Below are positions 591-32,000 of a stretch of 32,000 nt of DNA, in pieces. Numbering within the stretch: the first letter of the stretch is position 1; each line of letters begins with the position of its first letter. This stretch comes from Megasphaera elsdenii DSM 20460. Lineage in GTDB: Bacteria; Bacillota; Negativicutes; Veillonellales; Megasphaeraceae. The notes beneath the pieces are model-generated. The model searched no databases. It worked only from the letters and a program-made list of their open reading frames with translations, and was not told the origin of the DNA. The translations under genes were made by a program, and so were the position numbers. The stretch covers positions 2,040,001-2,072,000 of the forward strand of contig NZ_CP027570.1 of the NCBI RefSeq assembly GCF_003010495.1, written 5' to 3'.

Positions 591-672
591 AGGTTTGATG
601 TTGAAAGTTTGATGTTTGATGAAGAATGTTTTAAATTTAAAAGCCCTCACGTCAAACATCATACATCAAACC
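591..672. repeat. Long imperfect hairpin built from GTTTGAT-type heptad arms, with no cargo
   Basis: Left arm 593-627 is GTTTGAT GTTGAAA GTTTGAT GTTTGAT GAAGAAT. Right arm 644-671 is its inverse (CCCTCAC GTCAAAC ATCATAC ATCAAAC). The apical loop TTTTAAATTTAAAA is palindromic. A 17-nt stretch AACATCATACATCAAAC is identical to the right arm at 15386-15402. Confidence 0.75.
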
Positions 673-673
673 T

Positions 674-708
674 AAAAAGGAGCTGTCTCTTAAGACGGCT
701 CCTTTTTA
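674..708 (+). terminator. Rho-independent terminator of the atp operon
   Basis: Stem GGAGCTGTC (679-687) pairs with GACGGCTCC (694-702), including one G-U pair. It is followed by TTTTT (703-707) and preceded by an A-run. Confidence 0.8.
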
Positions 709-737
709 TTGACTTTTTCCTCTATCTCTGCTATGAT
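709..737 (+). promoter_or_regulatory. Sigma-70-type promoter for the glyQS leader
   Basis: TTGACT (709-714), a 17-nt spacer, then TATGAT (732-737). Confidence 0.55.
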
Positions 738-743
738 AGGGGA

Positions 744-968
744 CGTACAAATACATAGGCGATGCAGGAGAGTAAGTACGTATCATCCTCAGCGAAGCAG
801 GGACAGTGTGAGCCTGCTGCCGATGCGGAAGGCGCTCTGAAGGCCGCGGCCGGAAGTCTTTTGATGTGTATGGCCGGTGAATCAAGCGGGTCTTTCGACC
901 AACCAGGGTGGAACCGCGGGTAAGTATACTCGTCCCTGTAACATGTCATGTGTTACAGGGACTTTTTT
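744..968 (+). promoter_or_regulatory. T-box riboswitch leader (glycine specifier) with intrinsic terminator
   Basis: Stem I motifs are present: GGAGAGTA, distal-loop-like AGTGTGAGC, and a candidate specifier GAA-GGC-G (GGC 831-833). The T-box core is CAGGGTGGAACCGCG (904-918). The terminator stem 933-943/951-961 is followed by T6 (963-968). It lies directly upstream of glyQ. Confidence 0.85.
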
Positions 969-987
969 GTATTTAGGAGGGAACAAG

Positions 988-1866
988 ATGAATTTTCAAG
1001 ACATGATATTTGCATTGAAGAGCTTTTGGTCTTCTCAGGGCTGTATCATCTATGAACCGTATGATGTAGAAAAAGGGGCAGGGACCATGAACCCGGCTAC
1101 GTTCCTGCGCACGCTCGGACCGGAACCGTGGCATGTCGCTTACGTCGAACCGTCGCGCCGCCCGGCTGACGGCCGTTATGGTGACAACCCGAACCGCCTG
1201 TACCAGCATCATCAGTTCCAGGTCATTTGCAAACCGTCGCCGGACAACATCCAGGAACTCTATTTGAAGAGTTTGGAAACACTGGGCATCAACCCGGCCG
1301 AACACGACATCCGCTTCGTCGAAGATAACTGGGAATCGCCGACCCTCGGCGCCTGGGGCCTGGGCTGGGAAGTCTGGCTCGACGGCATGGAAGTCACGCA
1401 GTTCACCTATTTCCAGCAGGTCGGCGGCATCGACGTCGCTCCGGTCTCGTCGGAAATCACATACGGCATGGAACGCCTGGCTATGTACATCCAGGGCGTC
1501 GAAAATGTCTATGACCTCAAATGGAATGAAGACGTCACCTACGGCGATATCTTCCATCAGAACGAAGTCGAACAGTCGACGTATGCTTTTGAATTGAGCA
1601 ATGCCGACCTCTTGTTCCACCTCTTCGATGAATACGAAAAAGAAGCGATGCGGGTCATCAAAGCCGGCTTCGTCCTTCCGGCTTATGACTACGTATTGAA
1701 ATGCTCGCACACGTTCAACCTCCTCGACGCCCGCGGCGCCATCAGCGTCAGCGAACGAGCTGCTTTCATCGGCCGCGTCCGCAACATGGCCCGGGCCTGC
1801 GCCAAAGCGTACTTGGAACAGCGTGAAAAATTAGGCTTCCCGATGCTTAACAAGGAGGAAAAATAA
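988..1866 (+). CDS. glyQ: Glycine--tRNA ligase alpha subunit
   Basis: ATG at 988 lies 7 nt after [25 protein letters not shown]...[28 protein letters not shown] is highly conserved GlyQ. The upstream part of the 877 ORF overlaps the T-box and is not coding. Confidence 0.95.
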
Positions 1867-1867
1867 G

Positions 1868-3916
1868 ATGAGCAAAGATTTGTTACTTGAAATCGGTACT
1901 GAAGAAATCCCGGCTCATTATATGCCGAGTATCCTGTCCCAGGTCAAGGACCTGGCCGGGAAATCCTTTGGCGAAGCCCATATCGCCTACGAATCGATCC
2001 GTACCCTCGGTACGCCGCGCCGCATCGCCCTCATCATGAAGGGCGTCGCTGAAAAACAGGCCGACGTATCGGCTAAACATAAAGGCCCGTCGGTCAAGAT
2101 CGCTTACGACGCCGACGGCAATCCGACCAAAGCCGCCATGGGTTTTGCCCGGGGTCAGAAAATCGACGTCAAGGACCTCGTCGTCGAAGACGGCTATGTC
2201 TATGCCAACGTCACCAGTGTCGGCGCTGACACAGCCGGCCTCTTGCCGGACCTTATGAAGGGTATCGTCACGGGCCTCAATTTCCCCAAGAGCATGCACT
2301 GGGGCAGCCTGGACTTCCACTTCGTCCGTCCTATCCGCTGGTTCGTCGCACTCTTCGATAAAGACGTCATCCCCTTTGAACTGGCCAACGTCAAGTCGGG
2401 CAAGGTCAGCCGCGGCCACCGCTTCCTGGGCACGGGTGATTTCGAAATCGAAAGCCCGGCAGCTTACGAAGAAACGTGCAAAGAACACTTCCTCATCGTC
2501 GACCCGGAAGTCCGCAAACAGATGATCCTCGACGGCTTGCAGAAGCTGGCTGACGAAAAGGGCGGTACCATCATCATGGACGACGACCTCTTGGAAGAAG
2601 TCGTCTACCTCGTCGAATATCCGACAGCTCTCTGCGGCGAATTTGATGAAGATTACCTGAAACTGCCGGAAGCGGCCATCATCACGCCGATGAAGGACCA
2701 CCAGCGTTATTTCCCTATGCGCGATAAAGACGGCAAGCTCATGAACCTCTTCCTGACCGTCCGCAACGGCAACGATTACCATCTGGAAACGGTCCAGCAC
2801 GGCAACGAACGCGTCCTCCGCGCCCGCCTGGATGATGCCAAGTTCTTCTTTGAAGAAGATAAGAAACATCACCTCGTCGATTACACGGAAAAACTGAAGA
2901 AAATCGTCTTCCAGGATGGCCTGGGCACGCTTTACGACAAAGCCCAGCGCCTGGAAAAGATTACGGTCTTCCTCAATCATAAACTCGACCTCGGCCTGGA
3001 CGATGCCAAATTACAGCGCGCTTCGCTCCTGGCGAAAGCCGACCTGGCTACGCAGATGGTCATGGAATTTACGGAACTCCAGGGCGTCATGGGCAAGGAA
3101 TATGCCCTCATCGACGGCGAAGATAAAGGCGTTGCCGAAGCCATCAACGAACAGTACCAGCCGCGTTTTGCCGGTGACGTCCTGCCGCAGACCGACATGG
3201 GCAAGGTCTTGGGTATTGCCGATAAATTCGATACCATTACGGGCATGTTCAGCCGCGGCTTCATTCCGACCGGTTCTCAGGACCCCTTCGCCCTGCGCCG
3301 CCAGACCATCGGTATCCTCAACATCCTCATGGATGCCGGCTGGAACCTCAACTGCCATGAAGTCTTTGCCTTCGTCCTCAGCCTCCTCGGCGTAGAAGGG
3401 GAAGACGCAGCCAAAGTCATGGGCCAGCTCGACGATTACTTCACGCTGCGCCTGAAGAACATCTTCCAGGATAAAGGCATGGATTACCACATCATCGACT
3501 GCGTCCTGGCTTCGGATACGCTCAACGCTTACGAAGAAGCCCGCCGTGCCCAGGCCCTCATCGATGCCGACATCATGGGCAAGACCGACCTCTTGCAGGC
3601 CTTCACCCGCGTCAGCAACATGATCAAAGGCGCCGACAATACCGGCGTCAACCCGGACCTCTTCGAAACAGAAGAAGAAAAAGCCCTCTACAGCGCCTGC
3701 CAGGCTATGCAGGTCAACTTGCCGCAGAAATACGCTGTCTATGACTACGAAGGCGTAGCCGAAGTCCTTTCCGAAGGCATTGCGGCTATCAACGATTTCT
3801 TGGACAACGTCCTGGTCATGCACAAAGATGAAGCTGTCAAAGAAAACCGCCTCCATCTCCTGGCCTTGACGTACAGCCTCATCCAGCCCTTAGGCGACAT
3901 CAAGAAATTGGCGTAA
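1868..3916 (+). CDS. glyS: Glycine--tRNA ligase beta subunit
   Basis: 682 aa, starting 1 nt after the glyQ stop. MSKDLLLEIGTEEIPA... is the typical GlyS N-terminus. Confidence 0.95.
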   Translation: MSKDLLLEIGTEEIPAHYMPSILSQVKDLAGKSFGEAHIAYESIRTLGTPRRIALIMKGVAEKQADVSAKHKGPSVKIAYDADGNPTKAAMGFARGQKIDVKDLVVEDGYVYANVTSVGADTAGLLPDLMKGIVTGLNFPKSMHWGSLDFHFVRPIRWFVALFDKDVIPFELANVKSGKVSRGHRFLGTGDFEIESPAAYEETCKEHFLIVDPEVRKQMILDGLQKLADEKGGTIIMDDDLLEEVVYLVEYPTALCGEFDEDYLKLPEAAIITPMKDHQRYFPMRDKDGKLMNLFLTVRNGNDYHLETVQHGNERVLRARLDDAKFFFEEDKKHHLVDYTEKLKKIVFQDGLGTLYDKAQRLEKITVFLNHKLDLGLDDAKLQRASLLAKADLATQMVMEFTELQGVMGKEYALIDGEDKGVAEAINEQYQPRFAGDVLPQTDMGKVLGIADKFDTITGMFSRGFIPTGSQDPFALRRQTIGILNILMDAGWNLNCHEVFAFVLSLLGVEGEDAAKVMGQLDDYFTLRLKNIFQDKGMDYHIIDCVLASDTLNAYEEARRAQALIDADIMGKTDLLQAFTRVSNMIKGADNTGVNPDLFETEEEKALYSACQAMQVNLPQKYAVYDYEGVAEVLSEGIAAINDFLDNVLVMHKDEAVKENRLHLLALTYSLIQPLGDIKKLA

Positions 3917-4204
3917 TTTCGTGGTTAGTGGCTAGTGGTTCGTCTCGGACTCAGATGCCGCTGCGCGGCGACAAATTCAAATGAACAACGACGCTTCGGG
4001 ATACCCTCAGCGCGTAGCGGGCCGCCTTCACAGGACGGCCCCTACGGATGTAGCGCTGCGCGGCGACAGACTCAGGTGGACAACATCGCCTCGAGTAACC
4101 CTCGGCTCGTAAAAAGCAAACTCTCAGTCAGCAGAGCTGGTCCAATGGGCCGGAGAGGTTGATTGTACCTTCGACGACCCGCCGCGAATCCTGTGATAAA
4201 GCGG
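3917..4204. repeat. Mosaic intergenic repeat block R1 (in the glyS 3' UTR)
   Basis: Contains heptad arm GTGGTTA GTGGCTA GTGGTTC (3921-3944), short hairpins at 3954-3972 and 4048-4067, and the GTAG...CTAC palindrome 4014-4045. Positions 4003-4050 are identical to 10780-10827. A collapsed copy of the 164-nt element (termini only) is at 4117-4161, and a partial inverted REP foot at 4174-4190. Confidence 0.85.
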
Positions 4205-4256
4205 AAATTCCATGGCCAAAAATGAAAAATATGATATAATAATAGGGAGTATTGCA

Positions 4257-5440: not shown

Positions 5441-5645
5441 CCATCGTAGGGGCCGTCCCAAAGGGCGGCCCGCCGTGCCCAACCTCTCAGTCAGCTGCGC
5501 TGACAGCTCCCCTACAAAGGGAGCCAAAGCCTCTCCTCATAGGCCCTTTTTGGTCCGTCAGGTGCTGACCGCAGGGAAGTGCAAGACGGTTGCCAAAACG
5601 GAGAGCTGAGCTAGAGGTGGCCCGAAGGGCCGGAGAGGTTGGTCT
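5441..5645. repeat. Mosaic intergenic repeat block R2
   Basis: The REP-like hairpin GTAGGGGCCGTCCCAAAGGGCGGCCCGC (5446-5473) is identical to 16679-16706 and 19521-19548. It is followed by a full 164-nt element (5479-5642). Confidence 0.85.
5479..5642. repeat. 164-nt element with 10-bp terminal inverted repeats (full copy a)
   Basis: CCAACCTCTC...GAGAGGTTGG. Internal hairpins include GTCAGC-TGC-GCTGAC, GCTCCC-CTACAAA-GGGAGC, GTCAG-GTG-CTGAC and GGCCC-GAA-GGGCC. It matches 10893-11056 at about nine positions in ten, judged by eye. Confidence 0.8.
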
Positions 5646-6786: not shown

Positions 6787-7083
6787 TCGTTGATCGTAGT
6801 TCGTTCGTCGTTCATCGCCTCGGACTCAGATGGCGCTGCGCGCCTTTCGACTCAAACTGATAATGCGTCCTCGGGTATCCCCTGCGGTGCATAGCGGGCG
6901 CCCCACGCGGTCGCCCCTACGATACGGGCGATGCTGCGTAATTATGTAACGATCGCTTTTGGGCGATTATAAAAAAATCCACAGCCGTATCCATGACGAA
7001 CAGCACATGCTTTTCCGGCCTGCGGCGCCGCCAGGCGCCATTTCCCTCGACGAACGATGAACGACCTACGACGAACGATACGC
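6782..7083. repeat. Mosaic repeat block R3: heptad arms bracketing REP-like cargo
   Basis: Left arm GTTGATC GTAGTTC GTTCGTC GTTCATC (6789-6816) starts 3 nt after the bioB stop. The inverted arm GACGAAC GATGAAC GACCTAC GACGAAC (7049-7076) is at the other end. Between them are the short hairpin 6828-6844 and the REP-like hairpin 6893-6920 ending CCCCTAC. Confidence 0.8.
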
Positions 7084-7170
7084 CATCCCCCTAGCCACTC
7101 ATTCTTGTCTATGGTATAATACAAAGGATAAATAAATACATTCAGATAAATTTTCAATGAGGTGATTATC

Positions 7171-8508: not shown

Positions 8509-10710
8509 ATGAATCCTATTTTTGATACCCTCAACGACCGCCAGTGTGAAGCCGTCAAGCATACCGAAGGGCCGCTGCTGATTACGGCTGGCGCTGGTTC
8601 GGGCAAGACCAAGGTCCTGACCTGCCGCATTGCCCACCTCCTGGAACTGGGCGTCGCGCCGTACCGCATCCTGGCCATTACCTTCACCAATAAGGCTGCC
8701 AAGGAAATGAAGGAACGCGTGACCAACCTCGTCGGCGCCCAGGCGGACAGCATCTGGCTGAGCACGTTCCATTCGTTCTGTGCCAAGCTGCTGCGCTTTG
8801 AAGTCGACGGCTTCCACGGCTATACGCGGAATTTCACCATTTACGACTCGTCAGACCAGTTGGTCCTGGTCAAGGACTGCTTGAAAAAGCTCAACCTCGA
8901 TGACAAGCAGTTCATGCCGCGGTCCGTCTTGGGGACCATTTCGTCGGCTAAGAACGTCCTCATGGACGCTAAGGCCTTTGCGGCGAAAGCCTCCGATTTC
9001 TACGAACAGAAAGTAGCCGACGTCTACGCCTTGTACCAAGAAAAGCTGCGGGAAAACAATGCTGTCGACTTCGACGACCTCTTGTTCCTGGCCGTGCGCC
9101 TTTTGCAGGAAAAGGAAGATGTTCGGGAAAAGTACCAGTCCCGTTTCCAATATATCTTGGTCGACGAATACCAGGATACGAACCATGCCCAATACGCCTT
9201 GACCAAGATCCTGGCTGCCCGCTGGCGCAACATCTGCGTTGTCGGCGATGCGGACCAGAGCATTTACGCCTGGCGCGGTGCCGATATCCGCAATATCATC
9301 GACTTTACCCGGGACTATCCCGATGCGGCATCGATTAAATTGGAACAGAACTACCGCTCGACAAAGACCATCCTCCACGCCGCCAATGCCGTCATCGACA
9401 ACAACGAAAGCCGGCCCAAGAAGACATTGTGGACGGAAAACCCGGCAGGGAACAAGATTATCCATTACCAGGCCCAGACGGAACACGATGAAGCCGACTA
9501 TATCGCCGGCGTCATCTATAACCGCCACGAAATCAGCCACGAACCGTATGGCGATATGGCCATCCTCTTTAGGACTAACGCCCAGTCCCGTGTCCTCGAA
9601 GAGAAACTCATGCGCTATGCCATTCCCTATACCATGGTCGGCGGCACCAAGTTCTACGACCGCAAGGAAATCAAAGACGTCCTGGCCTATTTGCGATTGC
9701 TCTACAACCCGGAAGACAGCTTGAGCCTGACGCGTATCATCAACGTGCCGAAACGGAACATCGGCGCCACGACGATGGAACACGTCGCAGCCTATGCGGA
9801 AGAACAGGGCATATCCTTGTTTGAAGCCTTGTCGTCGACGGACGAGATTCCCGTCACCAAACGAGCCCGGACGTCGTTGGAAAACTTCGCCGCCATGATT
9901 TTCGACCTCCTCAACGACATCGAAGGCAAAGATGTCTTGAGTCTCATCGAAACGGTCATCAAAGAGACGGGCTACGGTGATATGCTCGATAAAGAAGCGG
10001 AACATGACCCGCAAGGCGAAAGCCGCAAGGAAAATGTCGGCGAATTCCTGTCTGTCGCCAAAGATTACATGGACAGCAATCCCGACGGCAACCTCCAGGA
10101 CTTTTTGGAAAACGTCGCCCTGGTCAGCGATGTCGATGATTTTGAAAGCAGTGATTCCAAAGTGACCCTCATGACTCTCCACGCCGCCAAGGGGTTGGAA
10201 TTCCCTGTCGTCTTCCTGACCGGCCTCGACGAAGGCCTGTTCCCGCACAGCCGGACCCTGCTGGACCCGGCGCAAGTCGAAGAAGAACGGCGCCTGGCCT
10301 ACGTCGGCATTACCCGGGCAGAACGGCAGCTCTACGTGACCAATGCCATTACGCGGACCATGTACGGCCGCATCTCGGCGTATATGCCCAGCCGCTTCTT
10401 GGCGGAAATTCCACCGCAGCTCATGGAAGACTACCATCGCAAGAGCGCCATGCCCCAGAGCCGGACGACGGCCGTGCCTGGGAAACAACGCGTCTCCATC
10501 TTGACCAAGCCCGTCGCGTCGAGCCTGCCGAAAAAACACGCCGTGACCGACACCTTTGCCAAAGGCGACAAAGTCCGCCACAAAATCTGGGGCATCGGTA
10601 CTGTCCTCGACGTCATCGGTGAAGGCACGAACATGCAGATGAAAATCCAATTCCCAACAAAAGGCGTCCGCCAAGTCGTCGTAAAATACGCCCCCTTAGA
10701 GAAAATATAA
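8509..10710 (+). CDS. pcrA: ATP-dependent DNA helicase PcrA (UvrD/Rep superfamily 1)
   Basis: 733 aa. Contains Walker A AGAGSGKT, LVDEYQDTN, and the ...LMTLHAAKGLEFPVVF... helicase motifs. The conserved Firmicute pcrA-ligA gene order is present. Confidence 0.95.
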   Translation: MNPIFDTLNDRQCEAVKHTEGPLLITAGAGSGKTKVLTCRIAHLLELGVAPYRILAITFTNKAAKEMKERVTNLVGAQADSIWLSTFHSFCAKLLRFEVDGFHGYTRNFTIYDSSDQLVLVKDCLKKLNLDDKQFMPRSVLGTISSAKNVLMDAKAFAAKASDFYEQKVADVYALYQEKLRENNAVDFDDLLFLAVRLLQEKEDVREKYQSRFQYILVDEYQDTNHAQYALTKILAARWRNICVVGDADQSIYAWRGADIRNIIDFTRDYPDAASIKLEQNYRSTKTILHAANAVIDNNESRPKKTLWTENPAGNKIIHYQAQTEHDEADYIAGVIYNRHEISHEPYGDMAILFRTNAQSRVLEEKLMRYAIPYTMVGGTKFYDRKEIKDVLAYLRLLYNPEDSLSLTRIINVPKRNIGATTMEHVAAYAEEQGISLFEALSSTDEIPVTKRARTSLENFAAMIFDLLNDIEGKDVLSLIETVIKETGYGDMLDKEAEHDPQGESRKENVGEFLSVAKDYMDSNPDGNLQDFLENVALVSDVDDFESSDSKVTLMTLHAAKGLEFPVVFLTGLDEGLFPHSRTLLDPAQVEEERRLAYVGITRAERQLYVTNAITRTMYGRISAYMPSRFLAEIPPQLMEDYHRKSAMPQSRTTAVPGKQRVSILTKPVASSLPKKHAVTDTFAKGDKVRHKIWGIGTVLDVIGEGTNMQMKIQFPTKGVRQVVVKYAPLEKI

Positions 10711-13206
<2,496 letters not shown>

Positions 13207-14957: not shown

Positions 14958-15410
14958 ATGTTTGAGGTTTGATGTTTGATGTGAATGGTGCGAAATTTGT
15001 GAGAAAGGAGTGCTTGGTGTGCCTTTACGATCGTTTCGTGATTTAATCGTTTGGCAAAAAGCAATGCGATTGGCACGAGAGACTTATTGCTTGGTCAAGT
15101 TGTTACCTATGGAGGAACGCTATGCTTTGTCTGATCAAATGAGAAGGGCTGCTGTATCTATTCCTTCTAATATTGCAGAAGGTCAATCGAGAAATACTAA
15201 AAAAGAATTTATTCAGTTTTTGCATATTGCTAAAGGTTCTAATTCAGAATTGATGACACAATTTTTATTGTGCTTGGATTTTGAATATTTGAAAAAAGAA
15301 GAGATTCAAAAGGTTATGAAATTATGCACTGAAATCGATGGACTGCTCGGCGGTCTGATAAAAAGCTTAAAAACTAACCTGGTTTAACATCATACATCAA
15401 ACATCAAACT
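14958..15410 (+). mobile_element. Cassette: four-helix-bundle gene flanked by GTTTGAT-type heptad inverted arms (IVS-like insertion, inferred)
   Basis: The arms are 14960-14987 and 15382-15409. A 16-bp perfect inverted repeat joins 14967-14982 and 15394-15409. The interior is visibly AT-richer than rfbA and rfbB. An empty homologue lies at 591-672. Confidence 0.55.
15019..15387 (+). CDS. Four-helix-bundle protein (23S rRNA intervening-sequence protein family; Avd-like fold)
   Basis: ...FRDLIVWQKAMRLARETY...RRAAVSIPSNIAEGQSRNTKKEFIQFLHIAKGSNSEL... is a clear family signature (PF05635/TIGR02436). I prefer GTG 15019 (8 nt after AAGGAG). The ORF opens at 15010. Confidence 0.9.
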   Translation: MPLRSFRDLIVWQKAMRLARETYCLVKLLPMEERYALSDQMRRAAVSIPSNIAEGQSRNTKKEFIQFLHIAKGSNSELMTQFLLCLDFEYLKKEEIQKVMKLCTEIDGLLGGLIKSLKTNLV

Positions 15411-18250: not shown

Positions 18251-19171
18251 ATGAAAATCTTTGTAACGGGTGTGAATGGCCAGTTGGGTCATGATGTGAT
18301 GAATGAATTGATTCGCCGCGGTCATATAGCGGTGGGCAGTGGTTCGAAGGCGGTGTACAGTGGTATGGCTGATGGGACGGCAGTGACGACGGCGCCGTAT
18401 GTGTCTTTGGATATTACCGATGCTGATGCCGTACGGCGGGTCATTACGGACGTGCAGCCCGATGCGGTCATTCACTGTGCGGCTTGGACGGCTGTCGATT
18501 TGGCCGAAGGTGATGACAAAGTGGCTCAGGTCCGGGCCGTCAATGCCGGCGGGACACAGCATATTGCCGATGTCTGCAAAGAACTGGACTGCAAGATGCT
18601 CTATCTCAGTACGGATTATGTGTTCAACGGTCAGGGAACGGAGCCGTGGCAGCCGGACTGCAAGGATTACCAGCCTCTCAATGTCTATGGTCAGACGAAG
18701 CTCGAAGGTGAACTGGCTGTGTCGCAGACGCTGGAAAAATATTTCATCGTCCGTATCGCCTGGGTATTCGGTCAGAATGGCAAGAATTTCGTTAAGACCA
18801 TGCTCAATGTCGGCAAGACGCACGATACGGTTCGCGTCGTCAATGACCAGATTGGCACGCCGACGTATACCTTTGATTTGGCCCGGCTGCTGGTGGATAT
18901 GATTGAAACTGAAAAATACGGCTATTACCATGCGACCAACGAAGGCGGCTACATTTCCTGGTACGACTTTACCTGTGAAATCTATCGCCAGGCCGGCTAC
19001 AAGACAAAAGTCCTTCCTGTCACGACGGAAGAATACGGCCTGTCCAAAGCCAAACGGCCCTTCAATTCCCGCTTGGATAAAAGCAAACTCGCCGCCAATG
19101 GCTTCCGGCCGCTGCCTGACTGGAAAGATGCCTTGAAGCGGTATTTGGAAAATTTAGTGTCTCGTGGCTAG
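18251..19171 (+). CDS. rfbD: dTDP-4-dehydrorhamnose reductase
   Basis: 306 aa. MKIFVTGVNGQLGHDV...STDYVFNG...YGQTKLEGE is RmlD-like. The last codons and the TAG stop lie inside heptad arm 19157-19191. Confidence 0.93.
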   Translation: MKIFVTGVNGQLGHDVMNELIRRGHIAVGSGSKAVYSGMADGTAVTTAPYVSLDITDADAVRRVITDVQPDAVIHCAAWTAVDLAEGDDKVAQVRAVNAGGTQHIADVCKELDCKMLYLSTDYVFNGQGTEPWQPDCKDYQPLNVYGQTKLEGELAVSQTLEKYFIVRIAWVFGQNGKNFVKTMLNVGKTHDTVRVVNDQIGTPTYTFDLARLLVDMIETEKYGYYHATNEGGYISWYDFTCEIYRQAGYKTKVLPVTTEEYGLSKAKRPFNSRLDKSKLAANGFRPLPDWKDALKRYLENLVSRG

Positions 19172-19670
19172 TGGTTCGTGGCTCGTTATGGACTCAGATG
19201 CCGCTATGCGGCGATGGATTCAAAGTGACAACGACGCTTCGGGATAACCCTCAGCGCGTAGCGGGCCGCCAGCCTCTGCTGTCCGTTTTGGCAGCCGTCC
19301 TGCGCCTCCCGTTGGTCGTCACTTGACGGGCCAAAAAGGCTTACAGGACGTCCCCTACGGATGCCGTTGCGCGGCAACATTTCATAATTGTATTACGACC
19401 GTGTGCTACTCGTCATAAATTCTGGCCATGCCCAGGATTCACGCGGGACGCCTTATCAGGACGTCCCCTACGAAATCGCATGCAGGCGATAAAAAAATTA
19501 TGCGGCTGCAAGTCGCAGCTGTAGGGGCCGTCCCAAAGGGCGGCCCGCTGTGAACAGGTGGAAATTATGCCTCGTTCTTCCGAACGGGCGCCCCACGTGG
19601 TCGCCCATACAGTTGTTGGGGACTGTCAATTCCCAGGAGTCGTGGCGGGCCGCCTGCGGTCCTGTGGACC
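19157..19670. repeat. Mosaic repeat block R7
   Basis: Heptad arm GTGTCTC GTGGCTA GTGGTTC GTGGCTC GTTATGG (19157-19191), short hairpins 19197-19213 and 19360-19377, and a split GTAG...CTAC palindrome (19258-19357) with an inverted 164-nt-element fragment in its loop. REP-like hairpins are at 19442-19471, 19521-19548 and 19586-19610. Confidence 0.88.
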
Positions 19671-21368: not shown

Positions 21369-21403
21369 CATCTACTAACCACTAACTGCTAGCCACTAAC
21401 CAC
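21369..21403 (-). repeat. Orphan heptad arm (GT-type on the minus strand)
   Basis: The minus strand reads GTGGTTA GTGGCTA GCAGTTA GTGGTTA GTAGATG. Its first 15 nt are identical to arm 3921-3935. It lies just downstream (minus sense) of the 21441-22310 gene and its terminator. Confidence 0.75.
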
Positions 21404-21405
21404 TT

Positions 21406-21439: not shown

Positions 21440-21440
21440 A

Positions 21441-22585: not shown

Positions 22586-23527
22586 ATGAACAAGACGTAT
22601 AAAGTCATTTACAACCGGACGCGATGCATGTATCAAGTCGTATCCGAACTTGCCAAAGGCCGTACCAAATCAGAAACCCCAGAAATGCTGAAAACCGTTT
22701 TCAGCAAACACGGGAGTCTGGCCCGAGGCATCGTGATGACCGTCTTGTCCATGAGCCTGGCTATGCCCGTGGGGGTGGCCGTGCAGGCAGAAGAGGGAAG
22801 TGGGAATACGGGGAGTGGGGATACTACCTATATCTCTGATACCAATACAGAAGTCCAGAATATCCAGGCTCTGGACAAGCAGGTAGTCAAGAATGCACAG
22901 GATATTGCTGCCAATAAAACCACGACAACTACCAATACAAACAATATTACTGCGAATAAGACGGCAATAGACAAAAACACTGCAAGCATTGCCACGAATA
23001 CGAGCAATATTGCCGCTAATACAGGGGCCATCAGCAATGAAACCACAGCTCGGACTAAGGCTATCAGTGACTTGGAAACCAAACTGACTACTGGCGACAA
23101 CAGCCTAGCTTCCAAGGCCAATGTGGATGCGTCCAACATCGGTACGAAAATTGATACTTCCAGTGAAACCACCGATGAAGCCAAAAAGAAAAAGCAGGAA
23201 GACAATGCCAAACTCTGGGGTGAAGCCCTGGGTATTGGGACCATTGCTGATGGAAACGAAGAACTGCTCACTGGCGGAACCTTGTATACGGAACTGCGGC
23301 CTCCTGAAAACGGTTTCTATATTTATAACGGGCAATCCACTGCCTACAATCTGCTGGCTTTGGATTCAGCCGTCAATGCCCTGGGTGTGGAAAAAATAAC
23401 GGACAACAGCGGGAATATCACCTATGTGTCCAATCTGTACAAGTATTTCAAAGCCAATACAACGCCGTCGATGCAACAAAGCAGTCGACACCCGTATCCA
23501 ATCTCCAGATCCTCGGCAACGATGTGA
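22586..23527 (+). CDS. Adhesin fragment 1: ESPR signal region plus coiled stalk repeats
   Basis: MNKTYKVIYNRTRCMYQVVSELAKG is the extended signal peptide region of type V secretion. It is followed by a signal peptide, then NIAANKT...NITANKTAIDKNTASIATNTSNIAANTGAI stalk periodicity, and ends ...YKYFKANTT. Confidence 0.8.
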   Translation: MNKTYKVIYNRTRCMYQVVSELAKGRTKSETPEMLKTVFSKHGSLARGIVMTVLSMSLAMPVGVAVQAEEGSGNTGSGDTTYISDTNTEVQNIQALDKQVVKNAQDIAANKTTTTTNTNNITANKTAIDKNTASIATNTSNIAANTGAISNETTARTKAISDLETKLTTGDNSLASKANVDASNIGTKIDTSSETTDEAKKKKQEDNAKLWGEALGIGTIADGNEELLTGGTLYTELRPPENGFYIYNGQSTAYNLLALDSAVNALGVEKITDNSGNITYVSNLYKYFKANTTPSMQQSSRHPYPISRSSATM

Positions 23528-26500
23528 CAGCTACTCTCGGCAATTCCGTCTATCTCGGCACAAAATCTTCCGCCACGGCGTCTAAGTCGGCAACGGCGGA
23601 AGCCATCCAGTTGGCCCAAGACCAGGGCGATACAGAAGCACTTGCTTCGGATGAATACAAGAACGCTGCCACAGACGAAGCCAAAAATGCCATCAAGCAG
23701 AAATATGAAGCCAAGTATATCCATGCGGCCAATATCGCGGCAATGGACAAGGACGGTATCTCTGCCGGCGTGACCAACTACGACACAGATTACACCTATG
23801 GCAATGATAGTAGCTACAACTATGCGGGCAGTCAGGCTGATGGTATTGTTACAGTAGGCGGTAAAGACGCTACCCGCCGCATCCAGAACGTATCTGCTGG
23901 TCTTGTCGGTCCTACGAGCACCGACGCCGTCAACGGCTCCCAACTCTATGCCCTCACCCGGCAGATCCGTTTTGGCGGCGACAATTCCAGCTTCGGTACC
24001 ACTGCGGCAGACGATCAGAACGTCGTGGCCCGTGGCTCCAACGAGGCTATTTCCATCACCGGCGGCAGCGATGCTGTCACTTCGTCCAACGTCGATGGCA
24101 AGACCACCAACACGGTGGATACTGCCAAGCTCACCGGCAATAACATTGCTGTTGTTGCAGATGCGGACAAGAATGCCCTCCATGTACAGCTGGCCAGCAA
24201 CCTCAAGGACCTGAACACCGCTCAGTTGGGCTCTGGCAGTGGGGAAAGCTATAAAGAAACCATCAAGCTCGACGGCACAGGGACCAACGGCGGCCAGATG
24301 ACATTGGCTGGTGCTGATGGAACCGTAAAGACTACCCTGGATACCACAGGCCTTACGATTGCCAATGGCCCGAAATTTACCAGCAGCGGCATTGATGCAG
24401 CCAGCCAGAAAATCCATAATGTGACGGCAGGTACGGATGATGCAGATGCGGTTAATGTTAAGCAGCTGCAGTCTGCCCGTACATTGCTGACCCAGGGCAC
24501 GAATATCACTTTGGCTGATACAGATGCTGATGGACACCATACCTATACGGGGAATGTGGACAATCTGGCAGTGAAAGCCAACAAAGAAGCTGCGAAATCG
24601 GTGACGCTGAAAAACGGCCTGACCTTCAATGACGGCACTAATACAACTGCTTCTGTAGAAGAGAGCGGTGCTGTTTCCTACAACCTGAATCAGGAGATTT
24701 CCCTGAAGAAAGTCACTACCGGCAATAGCACACTGGATACAGAGGGTCTCACCATTTCCGGCGGGCCGAAGATTGCCGCCAGCGGTATCGACGCGGGAAA
24801 CAGGGTCATCAGTGGTGTTGCCAATGGCAGTAACGATACGGATGCGGTCAATGTATCGCAGCTCAAAGCCATTCAGTCCGATGTGAACGCAGGTTGGACA
24901 ATCAAAGGCAAAGATCCGGCGAATGCAGATGTAAACGCCAATATCGGTAAGGGAAAGACCGTGACCTATGATAACGGCAACTATATCAAGTCTGTAGTCA
25001 CGAAGGATGACAGCACTAGCAATGCCACGGTGAAGGTGGATGTGACCACCGGCACATTTGGTTCTGGTACCGGTGATAAGGCTGGTACGGTTACTTCCAC
25101 AGCCAATGGACTGGCAACGACCCAGGATGTAGCGAATGCTATCAACAGCGCATCTATCAATGTAGTGGCTGATAATACATCGGGTAGTAAGAAAGCAGTG
25201 AAAGCAGGAAATACTGTTCACTTTGCCAATGATGGAAATCTGACTTTGGTTCAGGGGGATAATACGTCAGGCGAAGCAACTTTCACTTACGGCCTGAAAC
25301 AAGAAATCAGTATCTCTAAAGTCACGACATCCGATACGACGAAAGGCTCTACGGTTCAGACGGCAGAAGGCATTACGACCACGGATGTAGCGGGCAATAC
25401 CTATATTCAGAATGGACAGGGCATTACCTTGACACCGAAGACTCCAGAAGACGGCAAGACAGCTGTTATCTTGTCTAATAAGGGGCTGAGTAATGGTGGT
25501 AACGTCATCAGTGGTGTTGGTGCTGGTACAGCTGATACAGATGCTGTCAATGTGGCCCAGCTGAAAGAAGTGAATGACAAGGTGGGCAGCGGTTGGCAGA
25601 TTGCCGGTAATGACGGACAGAAGGTGGCGGATATCGGCGCCGGCAAGAAGGTGACCTTCAAGTCGAACAGTGCGTATCTGACGACTAGTACAGCAGCTCG
25701 TTTAGGTACGGGCGAATCGGATACCGGTGCTGATGTTACCTATAGTCTGAAGACGAAAGCACTTGCGTCGGGTACGAATGGAACAGTCGCTTCTGTTTCT
25801 GACGCTGATGATGGCCTTGCCACGGCTAAGAATGTGGCGGAAACCATCAACCAGACTTACTGGACCGCAGCTTCCGGAAAATCCGGCAGCGGTAGCCAGA
25901 CGGATGAAACGGCCAACGCTGCGGATAAACAGATTTCGGCCGGAGATACGGTAATATTCAATGCCGGAAACAACCTATCCCTTGTCCAGAATGGAGCTTC
26001 CTTCACCTATGGTCTGCAGACCGATTTAACCGGAATGAATACCATCCGCTTTGGCGGTACTCTGAATAATGGGAACTGGTCGGGCGGTCTCTTGATTGGC
26101 AAGCAGGCAGGTTCTGGTGCCAACACTGCAGACGGTAACTATATTACAGGCCTTTCCAATACAAAATGGGACCGCGCGACCATATCGGAAAACAGCAGTA
26201 TGGCAGCTACAGAAGGAGAACTTAAACAAGCCATTGAGAATATCACTACGTCGGGTGGTGGTACTGGTGGTTTCGGCTTGCAAGCAGATACTGGGGACTC
26301 CATTATGCAGGATCTTCGCAAGACCATCCAAATTAAAGGTGACGGTGAAGGTTCGCAGGATGGCAACATCAAGACATCGAATGAAGGCGGTGTGCTGCGT
26401 ATCCGACTCAATAAGACGCTGAACTTGTCGGAAGACGGTTCTGTACAAGTCGGATCCAGCAAAATGTCAAACGGTGCTATTCAGCTGGGGGAAGATGCGG

Positions 26501-26727
26501 ATGCGAACAAAATCCTCATGGACAGTGCAAAGGGCATGGCAACAGTCGGTGGCGTGACGATAGATGGCGCAAATAAGACAGTATCCGGCCTGTCCAATAC
26601 AACATGGGAAGTTGCAAAAGCGACGCAGGATGTTTCCGTGGGCGGTTATAAAGGCTCGACTAAGGTTGCAACAGAAAGTCAGCTGGCAGCGGCTATCTCT
26701 GAAGCACAACTACGGCTGCTATCATGA
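23524..26727 (+). CDS. Adhesin fragment 2: YadA-like head/neck/stalk repeats
   Basis: Recurrent neck motifs are present: DAVNGSQLYAL, DADAVNVKQLQSA, DTDAVNVSQLKAI, DTDAVNVAQLKEV. This frame is already open from 23329. The fragment ends in the coiled segment ...ESQLAAAISEA. Confidence 0.8.
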   Translation: MTATLGNSVYLGTKSSATASKSATAEAIQLAQDQGDTEALASDEYKNAATDEAKNAIKQKYEAKYIHAANIAAMDKDGISAGVTNYDTDYTYGNDSSYNYAGSQADGIVTVGGKDATRRIQNVSAGLVGPTSTDAVNGSQLYALTRQIRFGGDNSSFGTTAADDQNVVARGSNEAISITGGSDAVTSSNVDGKTTNTVDTAKLTGNNIAVVADADKNALHVQLASNLKDLNTAQLGSGSGESYKETIKLDGTGTNGGQMTLAGADGTVKTTLDTTGLTIANGPKFTSSGIDAASQKIHNVTAGTDDADAVNVKQLQSARTLLTQGTNITLADTDADGHHTYTGNVDNLAVKANKEAAKSVTLKNGLTFNDGTNTTASVEESGAVSYNLNQEISLKKVTTGNSTLDTEGLTISGGPKIAASGIDAGNRVISGVANGSNDTDAVNVSQLKAIQSDVNAGWTIKGKDPANADVNANIGKGKTVTYDNGNYIKSVVTKDDSTSNATVKVDVTTGTFGSGTGDKAGTVTSTANGLATTQDVANAINSASINVVADNTSGSKKAVKAGNTVHFANDGNLTLVQGDNTSGEATFTYGLKQEISISKVTTSDTTKGSTVQTAEGITTTDVAGNTYIQNGQGITLTPKTPEDGKTAVILSNKGLSNGGNVISGVGAGTADTDAVNVAQLKEVNDKVGSGWQIAGNDGQKVADIGAGKKVTFKSNSAYLTTSTAARLGTGESDTGADVTYSLKTKALASGTNGTVASVSDADDGLATAKNVAETINQTYWTAASGKSGSGSQTDETANAADKQISAGDTVIFNAGNNLSLVQNGASFTYGLQTDLTGMNTIRFGGTLNNGNWSGGLLIGKQAGSGANTADGNYITGLSNTKWDRATISENSSMAATEGELKQAIENITTSGGGTGGFGLQADTGDSIMQDLRKTIQIKGDGEGSQDGNIKTSNEGGVLRIRLNKTLNLSEDGSVQVGSSKMSNGAIQLGEDADANKILMDSAKGMATVGGVTIDGANKTVSGLSNTTWEVAKATQDVSVGGYKGSTKVATESQLAAAISEAQLRLLS

Positions 26728-27433
26728 CGCCAATGCCGTGGCTATCGGGGCTTATTATCATCCCAATGATACGACCATCTTGTCCATCGGTGGCAGTATG
26801 GGCGGCGGTGAAAATATGGTCAACGCCGGTGTCACTTGGAAGATGGGACACAGCGGTCATGAACAACGGGCAGCTCAGCCTGTGGTTACGCATCCGGTCC
26901 AGGCGGCTCCTGCCGTGCAGCAGGCCGCTCCGGTCCGTCCGGCGCCTGTTGCTACTCCGGCACCTGTTGTCACTCCGGCTCCTGTCACTACGCCAGTTCC
27001 GGTGAAAGCAGTCGTTCCGGCAACGCCGGCTCCGGCTGTGACGACGGCCATGCCAGCCGCTCCGTCTGGCGATACGGCTGCCTTGGCCCAGATCCTGGCA
27101 CGGCAGACGGCGATCCTGGAAAAACTGGCTCAGAACCAGTCTCAGGCGGCTCGTCCGACAGCGGTAGCACACGGCGACGATATTTTCCCGGATGTCCCAG
27201 AAAATCATTGGGCCTATGCTTATGTAGCTAAATTAGAAAAAGCCGGTGCGCTCAAGGGATTCAAGCGTCCGGCTGTGTTGAAGAGTCCTATGATGACGCG
27301 TGATGATTTCGCGTCGGTATTGTACACGGCCATGGCCAACGGGGCCACGACCAATCCGGCCTTGAATGGTGACGACAGCCTGAACCGGCTGGCCCAGGAA
27401 TTTAAGGCGGAATTGAAAGATGTCAAGCCGTAA
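26702..27433 (+). CDS. Adhesin fragment 3: YadA-type membrane anchor strands, Pro/Ala/Val linker and SLH domain
   Basis: The anchor reads NAVAIGAYYHPNDTTILSIGGSMGGGENMVNAGVTWKMG. The linker is PAPVATPAPVVTPAPVTTPVPV and the SLH motif is FPDVPENHWAYAYVAKLEKAGALKGF. The formal ORF opens at 26564, overlapping fragment 2. Confidence 0.75.
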   Translation, partial: KHNYGCYHDANAVAIGAYYHPNDTTILSIGGSMGGGENMVNAGVTWKMGHSGHEQRAAQPVVTHPVQAAPAVQQAAPVRPAPVATPAPVVTPAPVTTPVPVKAVVPATPAPAVTTAMPAAPSGDTAALAQILARQTAILEKLAQNQSQAARPTAVAHGDDIFPDVPENHWAYAYVAKLEKAGALKGFKRPAVLKSPMMTRDDFASVLYTAMANGATTNPALNGDDSLNRLAQEFKAELKDVKP

Positions 27434-30130: not shown

Positions 30131-30365
30131 GGCGCCTGCGGCGCCGTTTGGCGTGCAACGTGATTCGTTTGCCGTGGCTGTGCATAAAGGAAATGCTCCT
30201 TGTGCACAGCCTCTTTTTTTGCGAAAGCTCTCACAAATACAGGTTTGGGACACCCACAGGATTCGCGCGGGCCTCCGCTTATGGAGGCCCCTACACCGCG
30301 GCCTGCGGCCAGCCGACTGCGTTTGTTTATTACGGCAAACGAACCACGACCCACGGTAAACGACG
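30131..30365. repeat. Mosaic repeat block R8: heptad arms bracketing a terminator and a REP-like hairpin
   Basis: Palindrome GGCGCC-TGC-GGCGCC (30131-30145). Left arm GTTTGGC GTGCAAC GTGATTC GTTTGCC GTGGCTG (30146-30180). REP-like hairpin GGGCCTCC-GCTTAT-GGAGGCCC plus CTAC (30265-30294). Inverted arm at 30334-30364, with 14 of 15 positions complementary at its inner end. Confidence 0.82.
30176..30220 (+). terminator. Rho-independent terminator (pfkA), embedded in repeat block R8
   Basis: Stem GGCTGTGCA (30176-30184) / TGCACAGCC (30203-30211) with an inner AAGGA/TCCTT extension, followed by TCTTTTTTT. Confidence 0.75.
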
Positions 30366-30423
30366 TGAAAAAGGGGTTATGCATGACGACGGCAGCCTTC
30401 GTGCGATAATCCCCTTCAATGCG

Positions 30424-30452
30424 TTGACATCTTATAAATATGCACGTATAAT
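30424..30452 (+). promoter_or_regulatory. Consensus sigma-70 promoter for the ABC transporter genes
   Basis: TTGACA (30424-30429), a 17-nt spacer, then TATAAT (30447-30452). Confidence 0.7.
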
Positions 30453-30507
30453 AGAGTAGCGTATATATTATCATATGTTACAGAGTGTCATTTAGAGGAG
30501 TGTTATC

Positions 30508-31173
30508 ATGTCGTTTGATTTTAGTCTGATCTGGAACTCATTGCCCCTGCTGTTAGCCGGTGCCGGTGTTACCATTGAAATCACGGCGATTGCTGTCGGC
30601 CTGGGTTTCATTTTCGGCCTGATTACCAGTGTCTGCCGTCTGTCAGGCGTCAAGGTCCTGCAGGTCATTGCCGTCTGCTACGTCAATATTATCCGTGGTA
30701 CGCCTATGCTGGTCCAGATTTTCCTGATTTATTTTGCCCTGCCCATGGTTATCGGTGAACGTATCAATCCTTTCGTCGCTGCCGTCGCTGCCTGCTCGAT
30801 CAATAGTGGGGCTTATGTTTCGGAAATTTTCCGCGCTGGGATCCAGTCTGTCGATAAAGGCCAGATGGAAGCCGGCCGGTCCCTGGGCTTATCGTGGATG
30901 CAGACCATGCGCTACGTCATCTTGCCCCAGGCTTTCAAACACGTCATCCCGCCGTTAGGCAACGAATTTATTTCCATGACCAAGGAAACGTCCCTGGTTT
31001 CGGTCATCGGCTTTGAAGAATTGACCCGCCGCGGCCAGCTCATCATCGCCAAGACCTATGGTTCTTTTGAAATCTGGCTTACGGTTGCTGCCATTTACCT
31101 GGTCATGACCTTGACCATTGCCCGTCTTGTAAGCTATTTGGAACGGAGGTTCGCAACGGATGATAGAAATTAA
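30508..31173 (+). CDS. Amino-acid ABC transporter permease (His/Glu/Gln/Arg/opine family)
   Basis: 221 aa with multiple TM segments and the EAA-like loop ...[25 protein letters not shown]... typical of polar amino-acid permeases. Confidence 0.9.
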
Positions 31174-31879
31174 AGGTTTGAAAAAAAGTTTTGGCAAGCA
31201 CGACGTCCTCAAGGGCATCGACTTGACCATTCAGGATAAAGAAGTCGTCGTCATCATCGGCCCGTCCGGTTCTGGTAAGAGTACGATTCTGCGCTGCATC
31301 AATTATCTGGAACAGCCGACGGCTGGGGAAATCATCGTCGACGGTATCAGCATGAGCGATGCCAAGAGCATCAACAATATCCGCAAGGAAGTCGGCATGG
31401 TCTTCCAGCGCTTCAATCTCTTCCCGCACATGACGGTCTTGCAGAACATCATCTTGTCGCCTATGAAGACCCGTGGTGAAAGCAAGGAAGAAGCGACGAA
31501 GACGGCTATCCAGCTGTTGGAAAAAGTCGGCTTGGCCGATAAGAAAGATGCCTATCCCGAAACCTTGTCCGGCGGCCAGCAGCAGCGTGTGGCCATTGCC
31601 CGCGCGTTGGCTATGAAGCCGAAGTTCATGCTTTTCGATGAACCGACATCGGCACTGGACCCGGAAATGGTCCGCGAAGTATTGGACGTCATCAAGGATT
31701 TGGCCAAAGACGGCATGTCCATGGCTATCGTTACCCATGAAATGGGCTTTGCCCGGGAAGTCGCCGATCGCGTCCTGTTCATCGATGAAGGGAAAATCCT
31801 CGAACAGGGCAAACCGGACGACATCTTCTTCCACCCGAAAGAAGAACGGACGAAACTCTTCCTGTCGAAGATATTGTAA
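31160..31879 (+). CDS. Amino-acid ABC transporter ATP-binding protein
   Basis: Contains Walker [10 protein letters not shown], the signature [15 protein letters not shown], Walker [12 protein letters not shown] and the H-loop VTHEM. It overlaps the permease by 14 nt. Confidence 0.94.
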
Positions 31880-31886
31880 AAAGCGT

Positions 31887-31920
31887 AAAAAAAGCTGTCG
31901 CATAAGCGGCAGCTTTTTTT
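31887..31920 (+). terminator. Rho-independent terminator of the ABC operon
   Basis: Stem AGCTGTCGC (31893-31901) / GCGGCAGCT (31906-31913) with one G-U pair, an A-run before it and T7 after it. Confidence 0.8.
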
Positions 31921-32000
31921 GTGGTTCGTTTGGCGTGATTCGTTTGCCGAAAATTCGTAGAAATGCAGGCTGAGGCTGTGCACAGGATTCGCTCGGGCGC
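31921..32000. repeat. Start of another mosaic repeat block (runs off the window)
   Basis: Heptad arm GTGGTTC GTTTGGC GTGATTC GTTTGCC (31921-31948), then GGCTGTGCACAGGATTCGCTCGGGCGC. This matches the R8 junctions (30176-30184 joined to 30256-30270) without the terminator insert. Confidence 0.75.

Follow-up and report, generated by a model that had tools for sequence, protein, structure and literature searches.

The intergenic DNA of a 32,000-nt stretch of the Megasphaera elsdenii DSM 20460 genome (NZ_CP027570.1, positions 2,040,001 to 2,072,000; this whole stretch is referred to below as the window) raises the question of why short arrays of 7-nt units beginning with GT, here called heptad arms, are repeatedly found immediately behind stop codons, several of them facing an inverted partner. 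These arms had been noticed in an original prediction made from the sequence, and we have analysed them in the window, in related strains and at homologous loci in other phyla. The results indicate that the arms are probably the terminal inverted heptamer-repeat stems of a hairpin cassette of the intervening sequence (IVS) type, together with gene-less derivatives of it. The signature gene of the cassette encodes a PF05635 protein, and the single copy in the window, the IVP gene, lies between rfbA and rfbB.

Heptad arms of the window and the complete cassette

The 7-nt periodicity is not a product of base composition. A self-match scan requiring at least 15 of 21 matching positions, in which arms of fewer than four units are undetectable, detected nine period-7 arrays in the window, as compared with zero to two for each of the other periods from 5 to 11. 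When the window was dinucleotide-shuffled 200 times, a mean of 0.17 arrays was obtained, with a maximum of 2, and shuffled intergenic DNA yielded 0.045. All nine arrays are located in non-coding DNA, which constitutes 17.6% of the window, or overlap a stop codon, and eight period-7 arrays were reported independently by Tandem Repeats Finder. In the coordinates and phase originally given, GT begins 48 and G begins 51 of the 53 heptads, the GT dinucleotide frequency of the window being 0.05. Thus, the proposed heptad periodicity with GT at positions 1 and 2 is borne out, with some corrections of detail: 12 arms had actually been listed where 13 were announced, three arms of the GTTTGSC type score under the 15/21 threshold, and the arm at 30334-30364, described as strictly periodic, must be granted a 3-nt insertion to remain in phase. 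Stop codons in different frames, a further property noted for several dialects, are borne out in that about half of such arms (53–58%) have stops in all three frames, but as a defining rule this was rejected because the commonest dialect, GTGGTCA, contains no stop.

The proximity of the opening arms to stop codons was likewise confirmed, as they begin -15 to 41 nt from the stop of the preceding plus-strand gene at seven genes, distances that were measured from the sequence (Table 1). At the two extremes, the rfbD stop lies inside the arm and a terminator separates the ABC ATPase stop from the arm. One assignment proved wrong, in that the arm at 21369-21403 had been taken for the GT-sense arm of a minus-strand gene at 21441. 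Comparison with L007 and L008 (L-numbers, such as L007 or L097, denote loci and strains compared with the window) identifies it as the right arm of a plus-strand unit, the HAD unit, whose left arm in these two strains (GTGTAGT GGCTCGT GGCTAGT GGTTCGT GGCTCGT) follows directly past the TGA of the HAD gene (20385-21302). A further run of GT-sense heptads, degenerate and not listed before (GTTTGTA GTACAGA GTCTGTA GTTTACA GAAGATG) is present at 21317-21351, 17 nt upstream of the AC-sense arm, with TAG, GAG or CAG each 7 nt. The motif TTTTAAATTTAA precedes an AC-sense arm twice, at 21354-21365 in the HAD unit and at 630-641 in unit 1.

Window arms consist of four to five units and form four inverted pairs, with two more pairs revealed by other strains. 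The four pairs are real, their arms pairing into the closing stem whether the minimum-energy or the centroid structure is taken (z = -9.0 for unit 1, -4.25 for unit 3, -2.5 for unit 4 and -6.9 for unit 7); a lone arm is unstructured when folded. The view that these are orientation-specific, stop-codon-proximal modules pairing into long stems is therefore supported. The solo arm at 3921 has no inverted match within 3900-4215, and no partner was found for the arm at 19157. The right arm of unit 8 lies ∼120 nt downstream, beyond the window end; in L093 a complementary array at 9872-9905 stands beside the convergent hemL stop. With respect to transcription, unit 1 and the HAD unit are situated between a stop codon and an intrinsic terminator, and units 3 and 7 upstream of the next promoter-like site.

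Unit 4 is the complete cassette, and IVP is the sole protein cargo among the window units. The protein matches Pfam PF05635 (E = 5e-40) and NCBIfam TIGR02436, with weaker matches to Avd of diversity-generating retroelements (DGRs), and its closest solved structures are PDB 2GSC (XCC0516 of Xanthomonas campestris) and 2RLD, each with five chains. XCC0516 is described as a homopentameric toroid in a statement of PMC4990558 that cites Lin et al. 2006. The IVP gene is preceded by a strong ribosome-binding site, AAAGGAG, at 15004-15010, and its stop codon falls inside the right arm. The left-arm heptads read GTTTGAG GTTTGAT GTTTGAT, with one extra heptad in strain L007. The ends of the gene-less unit 1, inner flanks included, are 74–78% identical to those of unit 4. 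Many strains encode an identical IVP protein at the rfbA|rfbB junction. A link to defence systems was not indicated, no PADLOC match being obtained.

The cargo enclosed by the arms had been described as variable. It does differ between units, but the protein cargo is the signature gene of the class, and the other cargoes belong to a separate and unrelated family resembling repetitive extragenic palindromic (REP) elements, which also occurs without arms. This family consists of ∼95-nt modules (GACTCAGATGCCGCTGCGCGGCGACAGACTCAAACTGACAACGACGCC...) and GTAGGGG(A/C)CG...CCCCTAC palindromes. Three copies abut the inner edge of a heptad arm (3945, 6817 and 19192), and the family is also present at four junctions that lack arms (5446-5641, 10696-11148, 13206-13425 and 16518-16788).

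Heptad arms of PF05635 genes in other strains and phyla

A scan of one genome per species yielded 572 relatives of the IVP protein, of which the best 80 loci, picked by protein similarity alone, were analysed. They span ∼10 phyla (Bacillota, Bacteroidota, Acidobacteriota, Nitrospirota, Verrucomicrobiota, Chloroflexota, Spirochaetota, Fibrobacterota, Planctomycetota, Synergistota, Desulfobacterota, as well as Nitrosomonas). At least one period-7 array is present within 250 nt of the PF05635 gene in 75 of these loci, and both arms are detected at the strict threshold in 50. Within 200 nt of the gene 149 arrays were counted in 59 kb, as compared with 76 in the other 390 kb, a ∼13-fold enrichment. 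The median gap is 23 nt between the upstream arm and the start codon and 5 nt between the stop and the downstream arm. Arms span ∼5 to 6.5 units, arrays of 10–20 units also occurring; arms of fewer than four units being undetectable, this length distribution lacks its low end.

Phase alignment of the arrays produced one motif from any starting seed, with G at 0.88, T at 0.69, three variable positions, Y at 0.77 and A at 0.77, that is (YAGTNNN)n. Its information content is 3.4 bits, as compared with ∼2.0 in column-permuted controls, and 116 of 125 arms have one polarity. The left arm of a locus is 76% complementary to its right arm, as compared with 54% when the two arms belong to different loci. 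In 51 of 65 loci the neighbouring gene upstream is co-oriented, and the left arm starts at a median of -4 nt relative to the stop codon of this neighbour, within 30 nt in 35 of 42. The cassette thus lies directly behind the stop of a usually co-oriented upstream gene, with complementary arms predicted to form a long stem that loops out the cargo. GT at positions 1 and 2, location within 50 nt of a stop codon and an inverted partner, the properties first noticed in the window, are therefore those of the cassette class in general.

The sequence of the unit varies between genomes, ∼60 dialects being distinguished across phyla, some of which are common to several phyla. The commonest units world-wide, GTGGTTA, GTGGTCA and GTGGCCA, correspond to the GTGGYTA type of the window. 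Protein identity is correlated with similarity of the heptad dialect (Spearman 0.33, Mantel p = 0.001, 75 loci with arms, host phylogeny being a confounder), and arms therefore travel with the gene. At five loci (L038, L046, L052, L065 and L023) a tight hairpin composed of a GT arm and an AC arm is followed by the PF05635 gene and then by a second AC arm, so that direct repeats flank the gene too. A link of cassettes to rhamnose-biosynthesis (rml) clusters was rejected, as it is found in Megasphaera and Acidaminococcus only (3 of the 80 loci).

Among close relatives, all four window dialects occur as arms of PF05635 genes in Megasphaera or Acidaminococcus. In M. elsdenii MSK.21.52 and a Megasphaera metagenome-assembled genome (MAG), the rfbA|rfbB junction contains an IVP allele 72–75% identical to that of the window, with GTTTGSC arms and a small GC hairpin ahead of the arm, the exact layout of window unit 7. 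Two M. elsdenii strains whose RfbA and RfbB share 99% identity at this junction have IVP proteins that are 75% identical, with another dialect. This represents replacement of IVP and not divergence in place. The MAG also contains a second IVP, a frameshifted pseudogene after rfbB with AGTGGTT arms, and Acidaminococcus IVP has GTTCATC arms. In L097 (433-1050), which is M. elsdenii-like, an extra 119-aa PF05635 gene with AGCNGCC-type arms is located between rfbB and rfbD, the junction at which the window has an IS3-family element.

Heptad number differs between strains in 7-nt steps; the arm at 19157-19191, for example, is shorter in L007. In the HAD unit, left and right copy numbers are 5/2, 1.5/5 and 0/5 in three strains, the window strain being 0/5, the cargo is ∼75 nt and the ends of the deletion exhibit microhomology. 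In strain L097 the pfkA unit (unit 7) is swapped whole for a three-unit array, GAGCTCG TAGCTCG TAGTTCG, and a terminator. Orthologous junctions in different strains do therefore differ by whole units, as the original prediction had anticipated. Combined, these comparisons show 7-nt units being added to and removed from arrays, entire units that one strain has and another lacks or has replaced, and a dialect that travels with the protein. L101 (9756-11600) and L102 contain a group II intron (an open reading frame (ORF) with RVT_1 and GIIM domains) right behind the ABC-ATPase terminator, where it interrupts the left arm in its first heptad at a site equivalent to window ∼31921-31925, with the junction TTTTTTTGTGG|GTGCGCC...

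The link was also tested in Xanthomonas, where, as predicted, the XCC0516 orthologue is located between accB and accC and is flanked by inverted arms of the GGGAATC type. The left arm (GGGAATC GGGAGTG GAGAATC GGGAATC) begins ∼6 nt past the accB stop and the complementary array ends at the accC start. In L103, L106 and L108 (2420-2875) the cassette thus stands within the accB-accC operon with its right arm ending at the accC ATG. No recognisable Shine-Dalgarno sequence is present at the accC start after the cassette, raising the question of how accC is translated.

Other features of the window

The coordinates of the arms, the IVP gene and the REP-like sites are collected in Table 1 together with the gene order. 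At Rfam gathering thresholds the whole window gave no match, and thus no rRNA. A permissive Rfam scan of 550-1000 returned for unit 1 generic hairpin (miRNA) matches only, plus a sub-threshold T-box. The T-box leader (753-940, plus strand) lies upstream of glyQS and scores 55.6 bits against a gathering cut-off of 93 (E = 1.5e-11); a terminator-like hairpin at 932-962 follows it. The GlyS protein (1868-3916) is encoded in identical form on many gut and rumen metagenome contigs. An IS3-family element at 16911-18106 (minus strand; HTH_Tnp_1 orfA and rve orfB) is inserted between rfbB and rfbD, is missing from this junction in L004, L006 and L009, and is unrelated to the heptad cassettes. The ESPR/YadA-type adhesin locus at 22586-27433 is split into three ORFs (313, 1067 and 289 aa, with an overlap between the second and the third) and is a single ORF of 1529 aa in L098 and of >4028 aa in L100; the split could reflect a pseudogene, phase variation or an assembly difference.

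Table 1. Heptad arms, associated features and gene order of the window (distance: nt from the stop codon of the preceding gene to the start of the arm).
Feature	Position	Strand	Distance (gene)	Remarks
Unit 1, left arm (GT-sense)	593..627	+	6 (atpC, stop 584-586)	GTTTGAT dialect; 5 heptads
Unit 1, right arm (AC-sense)	644..671	+		Gene-less; 16-22 nt loop; then intrinsic terminator 673-708
Solo left arm	3921..3944	+	4 (glyS)	GTGGYTA dialect; REP-like modules directly after
Unit 3, left arm	6789..6816	+	2 (bioB)	GTTCGTC dialect; pairs with 7049-7076
Unit 3, right arm	7049..7076	+		Cargo 6817-7048, REP-like modules; promoter-like site 7092-7120 after
Unit 4 (complete cassette), left arm	14960..14987	+	5 (rfbA)	GTTTGAT dialect
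IVP gene	15019..15387	+		122-aa PF05635 / TIGR02436 four-helix-bundle protein (S23p, '23S rRNA IVS protein', Avd-like)
Unit 4, right arm (AC-sense)	15382..15409	+		Closes 471-nt fold with 14960-14987
Solo left arm	19157..19191	+	-15 (rfbD)	GTGGYTA dialect; rfbD stop 19169-19171 is TAG of heptad 2; REP-like modules after
HAD unit, right arm (AC-sense)	21369..21403	+		Bidirectional terminator 21405-21440 after; left arm and ∼75 nt deleted here
Unit 7, left arm	30146..30180	+	15 (pfkA)	GTTTGSC dialect; GC hairpin 30131-30145 ahead
Unit 7, right arm	30334..30364	+		Cargo, terminator-like hairpin and REP-like hairpin; perfect promoter consensus 30424-30452 after
Unit 8, left arm	31921..31948	+	41 (ABC ATPase)	GTTTGSC dialect; directly past ABC ATPase terminator 31884-31920
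REP-like family sites	3945-4140, 5446-5641, 6817-7048, 10696-11148, 13206-13425, 16518-16788, 19192-19650, 30250-30310			
Gene order, first half				atpC / T-box leader / glyQS / unknown gene / rplS / bioB / DHH phosphoesterase / pcrA / ligA / rfbA
Gene order, second half				small ORF (after rfbA) / rfbB / IS3-family element / rfbD / rfbC / HAD hydrolase / minus-strand unknown gene / YadA-like adhesin / aroK / pfkA / ABC permease and ATPase

Nature of the cassettes

The original prediction had stated that no element with this architecture was described. This does not hold, as the IVS of the Coxiella 23S rRNA gene combines an S23p ORF, variable heptamers and a 28-bp stem cut by RNase III. In C. 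burnetii it is a 428-nt element in helix 45 of the 23S rRNA, three or four GACAGAT heptamers, strain-variable in number, precede the start codon, the inverted-repeat stem is cut by RNase III at the first repeat, and the S23p protein is apparently not made (PMC4990558). IVSs of 23S rRNA genes that encode S23p are known from Leptospira, Coxiella burnetii, Brucella and Haemophilus (Ralph & McClelland 1993; Warrier et al. 2016, PMC4990558) and are regarded as selfish elements. Common to these IVSs and the cassettes are the PF05635 gene, terminal inverted repeats that form a ∼28-bp stem looping out the ORF, strain-variable tandem heptamers just upstream of the ORF and an ORF in sense orientation to the host transcript. 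However, IVSs reside in rRNA helix 9, 25 or 45 and the window units between protein-coding genes (after atpC, bioB, rfbA, pfkA and others); the window units are mostly gene-less, having lost or never had the gene; RNase III cleavage is demonstrated for the IVS; and the published work does not remark that the arms are themselves polar heptad arrays. Within the window, a long closing stem is found in units 1, 3, 4 and 7, a PF05635 ORF in the loop in unit 4 only, and heptamers of strain-variable number upstream of the ORF in unit 4.

Repeats of a similar kind have been described in other settings. In X. campestris, Rehm et al. 2015 counted 186 arrays of the GGGAATC type, and in Nostoc they described GGGGAYT; the Xanthomonas repeats are found no more than 50 bp from stop codons, frequently occur as convergent pairs and for the most part are transcribed, and the arrays form G-quadruplexes (G4) in vitro, the authors reading them as G4 elements (PMC4692102). 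Few conserved positions, ∼4 units, a stop-proximal location, inverted pairs and length variation between relatives are common to these repeats and the window arms; the difference lies in the G-rich GGG or GGGG units, as the window dialects have no run of three G and cannot form G4. Neither 'S23' nor 'XCC0516' occurs in the Rehm paper (PMC4692102), and no S23p link is drawn there. In simple sequence repeats (SSRs) generally, heptamers are the most over-represented long class in many bacteria (PMC4679880, PMC4692102; Mrazek 2007, as summarised in PMC4679880), and TAACTGA arrays are common to Beggiatoaceae, Cyanobacteria and Bacteroidetes (MacGregor 2015, PMC4679880). The TAACTGA repeats differ from the window arms in that, in a Beggiatoaceae genome, they mostly lie just upstream of start codons, with one inverted pair and no PF05635 link reported.

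Mazel and co-workers reportedly described, in 1990, cyanobacterial short tandemly repeated repetitive (STRR) heptanucleotide units CCCCAGT, TTGGTCA and CAACAGT. STRR and TAACTGA repeats resemble the window arms as intergenic tandem heptamers with 7-nt indels and a sporadic cross-phylum spread suggesting horizontal transfer, and one strand of several of the units contains a CAGT or AGT core (the reverse complement of TAACTGA being TCAGTTA). The window units also recall REP elements and bacterial interspersed mosaic elements (BIMEs), as well as MITEs (miniature transposable elements with inverted repeats), as short intergenic hairpin repeats that are often in 3' untranslated regions (UTRs), and the cargo of several units is REP-like (GTAGGGG and a GC palindrome). 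The cargo modules do fit REP/BIME; the arms differ in being tandem heptads with no GTAG and palindrome of their own, which remain unfolded when alone. They differ from MITEs in that the four complete units lack a target-site duplication and the 80 loci a linked transposase. The HutP antiterminator, with which the arms had been compared, recognises at least three UAG triplets 4 nt apart, upstream of a terminator and together with the hutP gene. TAG is present in only some GTGGCTA heptads of the window, and the arms differ in position, lying 3' of genes. The analogy is not needed, although the cross-phylum heptad core is YAG(T). A prior report of heptad arms flanking PF05635 genes in general was not found apart from the Coxiella case, in a literature coverage that was incomplete, so that this is absence of evidence only. 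The Coxiella IVS and the Xanthomonas repeats are already described singly, and the window adds non-G-rich dialects, an intergenic setting in place of rRNA, many gene-less copies and the general link between heptamer repeats and PF05635.

Taken together, we consider it probable that the arms are the closing stems of IVS-type hairpin cassettes and of gene-less forms related to them. The full cassette consists of a (YAGTNNN)n arm, a ribosome-binding site, the PF05635 gene (S23p/IVP) and a complementary (NNNACTR)n arm. Once transcribed, the 28–40-bp stem would be cleaved by host RNase III, as has been demonstrated for the Coxiella IVS with its S23p ORF, and the insertion, excised or rendered harmless in the RNA, would hence be tolerated in operons and 3' UTRs; because such a stem is long enough for RNase III, toleration would extend to rRNA and operons alike. 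Copy number may change via slipped-strand mispairing, and the gene-less hairpins (units 1, 3, 7, 8 and the HAD unit) and solo arms may be deletion products or miniature copies of same-dialect cassettes.

Several observations weigh against this explanation. The stem alone does not account for the 7-nt period or for an AGT core that is conserved and polar, and the cassette model also leaves aside the fixed order with the GT-rich arm first and the spread to new junctions. With a terminator-like hairpin inside unit 7 and a terminator ahead of unit 8, both arms of these units may not be co-transcribed. An excess of G:U over A:C mismatches, the signature of selection on the sense RNA, is missing from the arms (96 vs 123), and thus the constraint is not purely on sense RNA. 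Processing by RNase III in M. elsdenii would be an extrapolation from one organism and an rRNA context. The arms at 3921 and 19157 are partnerless. No IVP remnants were detected in gene-less units, a tblastn search of the window with the 80 IVP proteins giving noise (E ≥ 0.03); the proposed descent of these units is suggested by shared dialects and by end identity, the latter for unit 1 only. In addition, the association of dialect with protein is confounded by host phylogeny.

Alternatively, the arms may be periodic protein-binding arrays, in which the homopentameric toroid encoded by the cassette would bind one heptad (YAGU/YAGT core) per subunit on single-stranded RNA or DNA, in the manner of the TRAP and HutP rings, the arms being cognate sites for expression control, protection or mobility and not a stem alone. 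Such binding is compatible with the IVS-type cassette and could be its missing half; we regard it as rather unlikely at present. It is consistent with a three-base core kept each 7 nt across phyla as the other four positions drift, with the five chains of 2GSC and 2RLD and the toroid ascribed to XCC0516 in PMC4990558, with arm lengths of four to six units, with the unstructured lone arm, with co-variation of dialect and protein, and with homology of the family to Avd, which acts with nucleic acid in DGRs (PMC10053308). However, arms of fewer than four units are invisible to the scan, arrays of 10–20 units exist, the window has arms in four dialects yet one IVP gene, Coxiella apparently lacks the protein (PMC4990558), and co-inheritance alone can account for the co-variation. 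The cassette could also be a DNA-level mobile element, MITE-like or similar to an integron cassette, with arms serving, as duplex or as a folded DNA single strand, as terminal inverted repeats or recombination sites for a recombinase encoded elsewhere, or for homologous recombination between arrays, and with gene-less units as non-autonomous copies. Whole units present, absent or replaced at orthologous junctions, one architecture in ∼10 phyla with dialects common to several of them, and roughly equal G:U and A:C mismatches, which argue for a DNA-level or both-strand constraint, agree with this, as does the layout [GT arm][AC arm]-IVP-[AC arm] of ∼5 loci, expected if a one-armed circle integrated into a resident hairpin; a transposon origin of IVSs was proposed earlier (Burgin 1990 and Ralph & McClelland 1993, in the citing statement of PMC4990558). 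We nevertheless find this doubtful, as no transposase or integrase is linked to cassettes in the 80 loci, the four complete window units have no visible target-site duplication, the sole examinable deletion has microhomology ends in place of precise excision, and ordinary recombination in 99%-identical flanks can explain the replacement at rfbA|rfbB. Only 7 loci matched in 2.9 million viral contigs, which also makes a phage origin unlikely.

It is very improbable that the arrays are neutral SSRs, in which slippage favours 7-nt units that accumulate harmlessly downstream of genes and the pairing and the IVP link are incidental. Copy number does move in steps of 7, units are imperfect and decay towards array edges, and heptamers are over-represented among SSRs as cited above, but the ∼13-fold enrichment beside one gene family in unrelated phyla, the fixed polarity (116 of 125) with a shared AGT core, the complementarity of same-locus arms and the precise beginning of arms at the stop codon largely refute neutrality as a complete explanation, and it survives only as a mechanism of copy-number change. 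Regulatory G-quadruplexes, as proposed for the GGGAATC and GGGGAYT repeats, are hardly credible as the general explanation, even though the Xanthomonas arrays that form them in vitro occupy the same position with the same pairing as the window arms (PMC4692102) and flank the Xanthomonas IVP gene. GTTTGAT, GTGGYTA, GTTCGTC and GTTTGSC contain no run of at least three G, and most of the ∼60 cross-phylum dialects are alike in this respect, thus G4 formation is not the common property.

The preferred explanation, an IVS-type cassette with gene-less derivatives, allows a wider and speculative proposal, which we offer tentatively as one that may well prove incorrect. PF05635 proteins and the heptanucleotide repeats (STRR, GGGAATC, TAACTGA and the window arms) may constitute one ancient cross-phylum selfish module, in which each subunit of the toroid would recognise one YAGU/YAGT heptad of a single strand, pairing of the arms would allow host RNase III to excise the cassette from rRNA and mRNA alike, and recombination between arrays would place it precisely between a stop codon and the gene that follows. 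Three puzzles have so far stood apart: the function of the IVS protein, pending since 1993 with structures solved, the over-representation of heptanucleotides, recognised in 2007, and the stop-proximal hairpins of Xanthomonas and cyanobacteria. The present data tie them together, as the repeats are arms of PF05635 cassettes in at least ten phyla, even inside essential operons (accB|accC, rfbA|rfbB). For annotation, the arms mark real gene ends, can supply stop codons and are hot spots of strain variation.

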